Positions 47,601 through 50,153 are shown, numbered from the stretch's first letter. The stretch is 64,000 nucleotides of DNA from Escherichia coli (GCF_013122565.1 NZ_CP053258.1); one strand, 5' to 3'. Program-made: numbers and translations. Notes: a model not told the origin generated them from the letters alone.

Positions 47601-47618
47601 TTTGTATTGCCTGAACTT

Positions 47619-47643
47619 CGGCCTGCGCGATGATGCCAGGCCG
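47619..47643. terminator. Hairpin between convergent cheZ and the inserted nucleotidyltransferase gene
   Basis: Inverted repeat cggcctg...caggccg 19 nt after the cheZ stop; no strong T-run, so weak. Confidence 0.35.
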
Positions 47644-47687
47644 ATAGCAGGGTGGCGAGTATCGTTCAGGGAGTACGTGGAGGATGG

Positions 47688-48440
47688 TTATTTGTAGTTT
47701 GATAATTTTAGATCAGCGAAGCGTGTTTGTTGCGCCAGTAAATTTATCAACGCATTAAATTGTGAACGAGAAAATGACGATGACTGGTAGTGCAGTACAT
47801 CGTAATGATGCCAAACTTCATAACGTTTTTTCGTCAGTTCATGGTGCAAGAAATGACAGAGTTCCGGACCTAAACTCTTTACCTGCTTAGTAAAAATAGT
47901 GCGTAAAATCTTCGTTACCGAACCGCTTGGATTGGGGTTAGTATGAAGAACAAGTTCAAGATGTCTGCGATTTAAGTCGGTCAAATAATTATCTTTACTG
48001 ATAATTTTTTCACTACGTAGATCATAGAGCACGGCATCCCAACTCATTAGCGTAGTGTTTAACAGACTTGATTCATCCTCACAAAATATAAGTTTTTCCC
48101 GAAATGCCCATGTCTCATTGAGGTTCCAGATATCAAATTCGAAGTCGTGATAACGAAAACGGATCCCACCGAACTTATTAAAACGCAGTTGTTTAACGGG
48201 CAATTCAGCCAATGTCCGGAAGAGTTCCTCACGGGAGCGACCGATGACGATATCAAGGTCTGAAGAAAATCCTTCGACGCCAAACAAGCCTAAGTCACGC
48301 ACCATCCCGCCAAAAATCCAGGCCGGACAGGAACAGGCCAGAGTATCAAGTAATACTCTGGCTTTCTTATGCTCATCACTAAGCGTAAAAAAATCGGCGA
48401 TACGCTGTTCAAGCTGTTGGGTGTTTGAGACCACATTCAT
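47688..48440 (-). CDS. Pol-beta-superfamily nucleotidyltransferase (CCA/MNT/SMODS-like fold), function unknown; downstream gene of inserted operon
   Basis: ORF 47688..48440, 250 aa; nucleotidyltransferase signature ...AWIFGGMVRDLGLFGVEGFSSDLDIVIG... (hG[GS]-x9-13-DhDh) with a third acidic residue in ...HDFEFDIWNL...; start overlaps upstream gene by 32 nt; no equivalent gene between cheZ and flhB in K-12 as I recall; AT-rich. Confidence 0.7.
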   Translation of the reverse strand: MNVVSNTQQLEQRIADFFTLSDEHKKARVLLDTLACSCPAWIFGGMVRDLGLFGVEGFSSDLDIVIGRSREELFRTLAELPVKQLRFNKFGGIRFRYHDFEFDIWNLNETWAFREKLIFCEDESSLLNTTLMSWDAVLYDLRSEKIISKDNYLTDLNRRHLELVLHTNPNPSGSVTKILRTIFTKQVKSLGPELCHFLHHELTKKRYEVWHHYDVLHYQSSSFSRSQFNALINLLAQQTRFADLKLSNYK

Positions 48441-49917
48441 ACAGTGATTTTAGCTCATCGTGAAGGCGCATTAAATAACTATCCGTCATGCCTGAGATTG
48501 CGTCGGTAAGCAACTGCGCTTCTTTATAAAGAATAGGGAGTGTATTGGCGGGATCTTCAAACACACGGCGATAATTTTCAGAGATTGTCCCGTAAGCATA
48601 GCGACCAAAGGGAGTATCCGATAGGTATTCTTCACGAGAAACAAAAAGGTTATCTGCAGACGCGGACTCGCGTTCTCCGTCTCGTTCTTTCTTTGTTTTG
48701 TGTCCATGGATGCCAATCCAGAGCATATCCATCAAGTTAGTAATGTAATTAGACCCCCTAAGTTCCAGTTGCAAGACTGAACGATGAAGGTAGCCTCGTG
48801 TTCGGTCGAACATTTTCAGGGCAGTGCAGAGAGCGTGACCTTTGCTTTGCGAGATTAAATCTTTGAACGGGCAGTCACGCTGCATCAGCGTGGGTAATTG
48901 TTCGCGAAAGGCTTCAACTACGGCATTAATCAATGCACTGGTGGCATACACTCTGAACATTTGCATACTGAGTTCATTAATTTCTGCCGGTGAAAGTGCA
49001 TTTCTTTGCTCTTTCCAGGCGTCATTTTTGGCCTCTACAGCTTTAATAACATTTTCAATTACATCGTTCGACTCGGATTGTGACATCAAAAAATCACGCA
49101 AATCCTGGTATGAGGCAAATCCTTTCTTGATGGTATCTTCTGCGTCAAGCACAGAGTAGGCAATATCGTCGCAAGCTTCCATTATCCAGGTAAATGGGTG
49201 GCGGCAACCGGCATCATTACCTGGTACGCCAAGGCCCGTTTGCTGCCAGACATCCATGACAACCTCATGCTCAGAATAGAAAAAACCGTGTTTTTTCCAA
49301 TGTTTGTCCGATGAATATGAAGCTCGGGGATATTTGATCAGTGCAGCCAGCGTGGCATAGGTCAGATTCAGACCAAAGTTATCGTTAATAATTTGTAATT
49401 TGGTAACCAGGCGCAGGGTTTGTGAGTTTCCATCAAATTGCAGAAAGTCGTTATATATTTCGCTGTTTACTTCTTTATCAAGAAGGCCTGGAAGATTTTT
49501 ATTAAACCATGCGCGCATCGCTGCTTCACCTTGATGCCCAAATGGTGGATTACCGAGATCGTGTGCCAGTCCGATCGCTGCTAACAGAGCAGGAACGTCG
49601 CGTTCAACGACAATCCCCGTGGGTATTTCGCCAAAGATGTGTTCCTTCATCTCGAAAGCGAGCCTCATTCCTATTCCGCGAGCAAAGTTTGCTACTTCGT
49701 GAGAATGAGTCAGCCTCGTCCGTATACTGTCATTTTGATCTAACGGGAAAACTTGTGTTTTATCCGCCAGCCGACGAGTTGGCGCAGCAAAAAGTAATCG
49801 GTCGTAATCCCGCTCGATCTCTTGTCTTCCGCGAGCAAGGGGATGTAAAAATTCTATGCTGGTTTTTTTTAGATTATCTTTTCGACGGTTGCAGTTAAGC
49901 AATTGTTGCCATTCCAT
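48409..49917 (-). CDS. Dgt-family dNTP (dGTP) triphosphohydrolase paralogue (HD domain); upstream gene of inserted operon
   Basis: ORF 48409..49917, 502 aa; Dgt hallmark motifs: DKTQVFPLDQNDSIRTRLTHSHEV (HD histidine), GLAHDLGNPPFGHQGE (HD aspartate), FDGNSQTLRLV, HPFTWIMEACDDIAYSVLDAEDTIKKG, LTDAISGMTDSYL; RBS aagg 7-8 nt before ATG; AT-rich. Confidence 0.82.
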   Translation of the reverse strand: MEWQQLLNCNRRKDNLKKTSIEFLHPLARGRQEIERDYDRLLFAAPTRRLADKTQVFPLDQNDSIRTRLTHSHEVANFARGIGMRLAFEMKEHIFGEIPTGIVVERDVPALLAAIGLAHDLGNPPFGHQGEAAMRAWFNKNLPGLLDKEVNSEIYNDFLQFDGNSQTLRLVTKLQIINDNFGLNLTYATLAALIKYPRASYSSDKHWKKHGFFYSEHEVVMDVWQQTGLGVPGNDAGCRHPFTWIMEACDDIAYSVLDAEDTIKKGFASYQDLRDFLMSQSESNDVIENVIKAVEAKNDAWKEQRNALSPAEINELSMQMFRVYATSALINAVVEAFREQLPTLMQRDCPFKDLISQSKGHALCTALKMFDRTRGYLHRSVLQLELRGSNYITNLMDMLWIGIHGHKTKKERDGERESASADNLFVSREEYLSDTPFGRYAYGTISENYRRVFEDPANTLPILYKEAQLLTDAISGMTDSYLMRLHDELKSLYECGLKHPTA

Positions 49918-50153
49918 TTGATCGCCTTTGTAATAATTTAATTATTAGCAAACTAACAGAGAGACGGTGGGCGATTCTATAGGCTAAATGGCTAAATATC
50001 AGAACTGGAAAATGGTTCGCAAAACGTTCTGCAACTGAACCTATTTTTTGCATAAACGTCCTAAATCCCGCCTGTTTTGCCCCTTACTCAAACCATTGAA
50101 CGCTTTGCGCTCTGGCATCATTTACGCTTAATACTCTTTCCAGGATTGGCGAC

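Follow-up and report, generated by a model that had tools for sequence, protein, structure and literature searches.

Clover is a two-gene anti-phage system composed of CloA and CloB (Yamaguchi et al., bioRxiv 2025, doi 10.1101/2025.07.09.663793, PMC12265719), for which the preprint cites Nicastro et al. (2023) as the first bioinformatic report. As described there, CloA is an octameric dGTPase of four-leaf shape that is inactive alone and is activated specifically by dTTP, a nucleotide that rises in infection by T5-like phages. CloB is a nucleotidyltransferase (NTase) of the Pol-beta superfamily whose product, p3diT (pppdTpdT, 5'-triphosphothymidyl-3'5'-thymidine), occupies an allosteric pocket of CloA adjoining the dTTP site and suppresses activation (PMC12265719). 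The active-site motif of CloB is given as [D/E]h[D/E]...h[D/E]h, and its mutation (D71/D73 in Salmonella) renders the operon toxic; both defense and this toxicity upon CloB inactivation are reported for the operons of Salmonella and E. coli H5, with stated lengths of 2,203 bp and 2,200 bp, respectively (PMC12265719).

A stand-alone anti-phage dGTPase from Shewanella putrefaciens (PDB 9P8W) has in common with Clover the HD dGTPase superfamily and the logic of dNTP depletion. Such stand-alone anti-phage dGTPases are said to have been described by Tal et al. in 2022. The Shewanella enzyme is reported to be constitutively active and hexameric, and to function without an NTase partner (PMC12265719). 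The same preprint likens Clover to the negative-regulator signals of Hailong and Panoptes/MISS: in these systems too, a constitutive nucleotide (oligodeoxyadenylate made by HalB in Hailong, 2'3'-c-di-AMP in Panoptes/MISS) keeps an effector off until infection, although the effector (an ion channel or other, as opposed to a dGTPase), the signal and the tested fold class of the NTase differ from those of Clover.

The gene analyzed here, located between cheZ and flhB in Escherichia coli, is very probably cloB, encoding the regulatory NTase of a two-gene Clover system with CloA as the effector, and the pair carries every Clover feature that can be assessed at the sequence level. The chemical product, the inhibition and the defense phenotype of this particular allele we infer from its sequence.

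The overlapping gene pair between cheZ and flhB

The window, by which we mean the whole 64,000-nucleotide stretch of DNA that was analyzed (NZ_CP053258.1, assembly GCF_013122565.1), is a segment of an Escherichia chromosome in which tar, tap, cheR, cheB, cheY and cheZ (plus strand) precede flhB, flhA and flhE. Two ORFs lie on the minus strand in the cheZ-flhB interval: cloA (48409-49917), predicted to encode a 502-aa HD-domain dGTP triphosphohydrolase effector (WP_171459269.1), and cloB (47688-48440), encoding a 250-aa NTase of the Pol-beta superfamily (WP_214662951.1) that is predicted to be a p3diT synthase, together forming an operon of 2,230 bp (47688-49917). RefSeq labels the CloB protein as a hypothetical protein of E. 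coli and its CloA neighbor as 'dgt'. The arrangement is that of Clover, with an HD dGTPase first and a small Pol-beta NTase second, the two overlapping. A first-pass annotation of this DNA had named a dNTPase as the partner, and the upstream gene is indeed a member of the HD dGTPase family; it had assigned an unknown role to the NTase itself, for which a family role has since been found in the literature as CloB of Clover (PMC12265719).

The operon resides in a cassette of 2,435 nt (47615-50049); in E. coli K-12, its place is taken by a spacer of 85 nt that separates cheZ from flhB. In BLASTN comparisons with K-12, homology stops at 47614, 14 nt past the cheZ stop codon, and restarts at 50050. 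The cassette has a GC content of 0.44 as compared to 0.53-0.55 in the flanks, and copies with 98% identity or more occur in 106 of the 5,426 complete E. coli genomes (about 2%). It thus shows, in its low GC and patchy presence, the signature of horizontal acquisition, a further trait shared with the published Clover system; a search of the borders for terminal direct or inverted repeats found none.

The cloB ORF begins at the earliest available start codon past the upstream in-frame stop. Its ATG is at 48440, and the stop codon of cloA is at 48409-48411, so that the final 32 nt of cloA (48409-48440, minus strand) double as the start of cloB in a different frame; an overlap of 29-47 nt is also seen in nine of ten homologous loci examined. 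No well-placed Shine-Dalgarno sequence precedes the cloB ATG. The two genes are probably translationally coupled, as the overlap suggests, helped by the lack of such a ribosome-binding sequence; of the coupling stated in the first-pass annotation, the overlap is therefore an observation and the coupling itself a deduction from it. A true start far downstream, which would have left the NTase motif untranslated, is at odds with the N-terminus of CloB (MNVVSNTQQLEQRI), which is kept in homologues and aligns with the Salmonella protein from residue 11 of the latter on.

Signals for transcription are less distinct. A sigma-70-like promoter candidate (CTGATA-17-TAGAAT) is located 5' of cloA at 49974-50002 on the minus strand, identified by consensus match alone; it is weak evidence because sigma-70-like sites are no commoner in the region than in shuffled sequence, and the scan for promoters and terminators gave nothing above background. 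Between the convergent cheZ and cloB, folding of 47601-47690 as the minus strand gave a very stable hairpin at 47610-47670, inside the cassette border, with an energy of -28.6 kcal/mol (z = -4.4). Neither strand of the hairpin carries a T-run, and the structure could possibly be a transcript end or a REP-like element.

CloB and CloA compared with characterized relatives

The NTase signature that had been read from the 250-aa ORF consists of F43-GGMVRD-49, S60-DLDIVIG-67 and E101-FDIWNL-107, that is, a motif G44-G45-x-x-R48-D49 with D61, D63 and D103 as the predicted catalytic residues. The active-site motif published for CloB is present as D61-L-D63 and F102-D103-I104. In an alignment of 150 CloB family sequences, G45, R48, D61, D63, G92, D103, W105 and W111 are invariant, and because of this invariance the signature can be taken as a conserved active site and no chance match, in agreement with the earlier reading.

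The operon from Salmonella was recovered through its exact CloA protein at L016:6001-8203, a length of 2,203 bp as published; its CloB (L016:7370-8203) has 277 aa and carries D71 and D73, and it was by the identical operon length and the D71/D73 numbering that we recognized this locus as the one used in the preprint. The window NTase aligns with Salmonella CloB over its full length (249 aa, one gap) with 35% identity (E 9e-55), D61 and D63 falling opposite the experimentally mutated D71 and D73. At 250 aa, it is shorter than the CloB proteins of 276-277 aa in the characterized systems. A metagenome contig from JGI (P0003) was also considered as the source of the E. coli H5 or Salmonella CloB of the preprint, and was discarded: it is not Salmonella, and its flank is unlike E. 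coli. Searches of the window NTase against PADLOC (2023), NCBIfam, Pfam, PHROGs and, by sequence, the PDB returned nothing significant. Since PADLOC, Pfam and NCBIfam miss the NTase, the assignment as CloB draws on pairwise and family homology together with one preprint.

Structure prediction and structural search, as recommended in the first-pass annotation, place CloB among enzymes with a class II CCA-adding-like fold. The AlphaFold2 model calculated from the family alignment is one compact unit of 250 aa (pLDDT 96.3, pTM 0.92). All 46 Foldseek matches in the PDB at E<=0.001 belong to the class II CCA-adding or A-adding enzymes or to bacterial poly(A) polymerase (PAP), that of E. coli included, with E from 4e-8 to 3e-5 and TMq 0.43-0.58 (0.50-0.58 for the best, at E of about 4e-8) over some 180-260 alignment columns of enzymes of 340-520 residues. 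Entries without an informative title we take to be class II tRNA nucleotidyltransferases or bacterial PAP, and the aligned part of the CCA-adding enzymes is presumably their head and neck domains. Common to CloB and these enzymes (Pfam PF01743) are thus the GGxxRD...DxD head and the head-neck fold. The likeness to a CCA-adding head, noted beforehand from GGxVRD, is thereby corroborated, and the statement that CloB has no obvious extra domain was roughly right, in that the single unit corresponds to a part of a CCA-adding enzyme.

With such structural neighbors, CloB might be an RNA 3'-end enzyme (CCA-adding, A-adding or PAP-like) by which tRNA or mRNA is repaired or marked, and its association with the dNTPase would then be incidental or Cca-like (head plus HD). 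Weak sequence matches point the same way, namely to the PolyA_pol head in Pfam (i-E 0.099), to pcnB (TIGR01942, E 0.066, 12 bits against a cut-off of 306) and, by hhalign, to E. coli Cca (E 0.003, probability 10%). The last of these alignments, however, puts T129/T130, a near-invariant TT, opposite the RR of motif B and does not keep EDxxR, a point of low weight given the weak alignment and the definitions we assume for class II enzymes, with RR(D) of motif B as ribose-sensing and EDxxR of motif D as base-templating. The 250 aa of CloB are too few for the tRNA-binding body and tail of its structural matches, and the head profile of PF01743 is not significantly matched. The strict pairing with CloA and the published chemistry of CloB (PMC12265719) argue in the same direction, the likely acceptor being dTTP and not RNA, and we regard an RNA substrate as very unlikely.

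The model of CloB fits instead a trimmed, template-independent enzyme adding nucleotides to a 3'-OH, devoid of RNA-binding modules and of ribose- and base-reading residues. Enzymes of the CCA-adding, A-adding and PAP types attach a nucleotide to a 3'-OH, the chemistry that is needed for pppdT and dTTP, and a trimmed enzyme of this sort would suit a reaction in which one dTTP donates its dTMP to the 3'-OH of a second.

Other NTase families fare less well in the comparison. The first-pass annotation had seen a resemblance to MNT- and SMODS-type enzymes and had considered CBASS-like signaling, but CD-NTases (SMODS/cGAS-DncV-like) are absent from the best 50 fold matches of CloB, where MNT and resistance NTases too are absent or marginal, neither PADLOC nor the SMODS family of Pfam gives a match, and the partner is a dGTPase; furthermore, the signal in CBASS activates, whereas the published signal of Clover inhibits (PMC12265719). 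The membrane ion-channel effector of Hailong (HalA/HalB) finds no equivalent either, the sole partner in the window being a soluble HD dGTPase with cheZ and flhB as the flanking genes. A resistance gene for aminoglycosides or lincosamides (ANT/Lnu), which had been named beforehand as an example of a well-known unrelated family, has in its favor a single fold match, a marginal one with LinB at rank 47 (E 1.2e-3, TMq 0.32), to be set against the lack of any resistance family match in Pfam or NCBIfam and the conserved pairing with a dGTPase; an identity of this kind is scarcely credible.

The partner of CloB in the window matches dGTPase families in PADLOC (5.3e-71) and NCBIfam (TIGR01353 dGTP_triPase, 1.3e-84) and the HD domain of Pfam. 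It is 66% identical to Salmonella CloA in the structures 9P8S-9P8V (E 4.5e-190), and far more distant from the stand-alone dGTPase 9P8W (E 2.3e-24). Against the NCBIfam model for antiphage dGTPases (NF041026) it scores 182 bits, below the cut-off of 400, and it is paired with an NTase as opposed to the single-gene enzymes. The data section of the preprint gives the CloA coordinates as 8P9S-8P9V (PMC12265719), which looks like a transposition error, as the sequence-matched PDB entries are 9P8S-9P8V.

In window CloA, the HD motif is H119/D120 and the HE dyad H128/E131, and all catalytic residues are kept (H71, H119, D120, D250, H128 and E131, corresponding to H69, H117, D118, D242, H126 and E129 in Salmonella). 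The two ligand pockets are conserved as well. Nine of the ten residues contacting p3diT (T25, R29, R34, D37, R38, F41, N75, N181, Q311 and R314 in Salmonella) are retained, as R31, R36, D39, R40, F43, N77, N184, Q319 and R322, with T25 replaced by Leu, and the dTTP pocket (R47, D61, Q172, K256, S418, N420, A444, T449 and Y452) is complete at nine out of nine. The housekeeping Dgt of E. coli, serving as a control, has three of ten and four of nine of these positions, respectively; as Dgt is without R29, R34, D37, F41, N75 and Q311 of the first pocket and D61, Q172, K256, N420 and A444 of the second, these residues are specifically conserved.

Differences from Salmonella CloA are likewise evident. 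Besides the change of T25 to Leu, the residue stacking between tetramers, H263, is replaced by Gln and Q427 by Asp. The window protein also contains two extra elements in comparison with the solved structure: a VPGND insertion (around 230-234) and, within the C-terminal helical bundle, a charged stretch of about 25 aa (around 407-432, KTKKERDGERESASADNLFVSREEYLS), the latter being present in Cronobacter and absent in Enterobacter. Given T25 to Leu, H263 to Gln and the additional segment, the oligomeric state and thresholds of CloA could differ. One may then ask if the pair, although of the Clover family, belongs to a clade at cheZ/flhB in which CloB makes another product (a linear di- or oligo-deoxynucleotide), or in which the cue or the oligomeric architecture is another. 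The substitutions, the charged segment and the lower identity of CloB (35%) than of CloA (66%) to Salmonella would be in keeping with this. We nevertheless consider it improbable, since the p3diT contacts that read the base (D37, N75 and Q311), the arginines that bind phosphate and every dTTP contact are kept here and not in Dgt, and since p3diT is also reported for the distant CloB of Xanthomonas (PMC12265719).

How CloB would act on CloA is a separate matter. It could restrain the dNTPase directly and without a diffusible signal, by nucleotidylylation in the manner of GlnE/GlnD or MenT/AbiEii or as a stoichiometric antitoxin, and overlapping genes suit co-translated partners, while the toxicity of the operon upon inactivation of CloB (PMC12265719) is reminiscent of toxin-antitoxin pairs. 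This, too, is very improbable: CloA purified from cells co-expressing CloB bore non-covalent p3diT, synthetic p3diT alone inhibits CloA with an IC50 of about 7.6 uM (PMC12265719), and neither PADLOC nor Pfam gives an MNT or AbiEii family match for CloB. The earlier proposals of a protein- or RNA-modifying partner and of an analogy to GlnD are left without support, and the two others, a regulator of the dNTPase and a synthase of a nucleotide signal, merge into one, as the published CloB signal p3diT regulates CloA (PMC12265719).

For the window pair, we therefore favor the Clover mechanism, which would proceed as follows. CloB, through D61, D63 and D103, would join two dTTP by a 3'-5' linkage into p3diT (pppdTpdT), which would settle in an allosteric pocket where the subunits of the CloA dimer meet and raise the dTTP level required for activation. 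T5-like phages would inflate the dNTP pool, and the rise in dTTP would displace the inhibition by p3diT; the activated CloA would then hydrolyze dGTP and starve phage DNA replication. By holding CloA off through p3diT until infection, CloB would shield uninfected cells from the toxicity of CloA.

Spread of the cassette and the two Clover lineages in E. coli

A first search for CloB homologues gave 52 clusters, those with an organism name being from Enterobacteriaceae, and an exhaustive HMMER scan yielded 1,029 CloB family representatives at E<=1e-3, the best 150 of which are mostly of about 250-300 aa. Across loci in which CloB identity to the window ranges from 73% down to 28%, the NTase comes immediately after a CloA-like HD gene, usually with an overlap, in 15 of the 16 with a readable upstream neighbor. 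The sole exception (L006) is the third contig of a 32%-identical homologue (P0052), where a 564-aa gene without a Pfam record is found upstream; the other two contigs of the same homologue do show the HD gene. One further contig (L003) starts 19 nt before the NTase, has no visible upstream gene and is outside this count. The loci with a preceding CloA-like HD gene include those of three distant homologues (P0062, P0101 and P0199). On one metagenomic contig (L022:2-610), a distant CloB homologue is preceded by an ORF that aligns with residues 33-174 and 437-492 of CloA alone, which points either to an internal deletion of CloA or to an assembly artefact.

Identities of CloA and CloB to the window pair drop in parallel across the loci (L001-L020), with CloB diverging about twice as fast as CloA. 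The same cheZ/flhB site is occupied in Enterobacter, Cronobacter and two metagenomic relatives. Other relatives are surrounded by defense or integrative islands with type I R-M, DarTG, GmrSD and integrases: the Atlantibacter relative by a defense island with type I R-M and DarTG, and the 32%-identical relative by an IS-rich region with GmrSD.

Signs of the loss of one or the other gene can also be observed. In Enterobacter hormaechei (CP056155.1, L007:3365-6038), an IS3-family transposase inside cloA leaves fragments of 396 aa and 87 aa with cloB intact, so that the effector is inactivated and the regulator retained. Many of the Shigella flexneri entries in the 90% cluster to which the window NTase belongs (P0011, P0334-P0346) are fragments of 53-160 aa, a sign that cloB may have been truncated or have decayed in this species. 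The idea of a phage-borne, p3diT-making decoy was dropped, as no CloB-like gene was found by tblastn among 50,697 phage records.

A second lineage of Clover in E. coli is found in an integrative island at selC (tRNA-Sec), as in strain EcPF16 (L018:3585-5784), where the operon has exactly 2,200 bp and CloA and CloB are 85% and 76% identical to those of Salmonella. A distant partial match is seen in eight complete E. coli genomes, as opposed to the 106 with the window type. As the E. coli H5 operon is given as 2,200 bp (PMC12265719), equal to the selC type and not to the 2,230 bp of the window, the H5 system appears to be of the selC-island type. The window clade at cheZ/flhB stands apart from the Salmonella system and, judged by operon length, from that of E. 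coli H5, so that it appears not to be the E. coli lineage assayed in the preprint.

Ahead of the selC type of Clover, an identical set of five genes is always found, in Salmonella (L016:1489-5671), in Atlantibacter (L001:80-4259) and in E. coli (L018:6169-10351). The set consists of a small ORF, a fusion of a PfkB kinase with a nucleoside 2-deoxyribosyltransferase, QueC, an unknown ORF, and an Ogg-like glycosylase with a Dam-like methylase, and possibly represents a further defense module, acting by nucleotide or base modification, that travels with Clover.

That the cheZ/flhB clade is functionally distinct from the characterized systems, in its signal, the oligomeric state of CloA, the threshold or the range of phages, we consider unlikely. 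If true, expression could be linked to motility through the position between the chemotaxis and flagellar-export operons, which is conserved in Escherichia, Enterobacter and Cronobacter, for instance in defense against flagellotropic phages.

The window NTase is a divergent copy of CloB and a protein of an already explained kind and, as its mechanism class was published in 2025, no new biological question is opened by it. It provides a named function, of understood mechanism, to a RefSeq hypothetical protein (WP_214662951.1) and to a neighbor mislabeled as 'dgt', a pair present in about 2% of complete E. coli genomes as well as in Enterobacter, Cronobacter and related genera. As one of two divergent Clover lineages at different chromosomal sites in E. 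coli, the cheZ/flhB lineage is a natural second test case for the generality of p3diT signaling and dTTP sensing.
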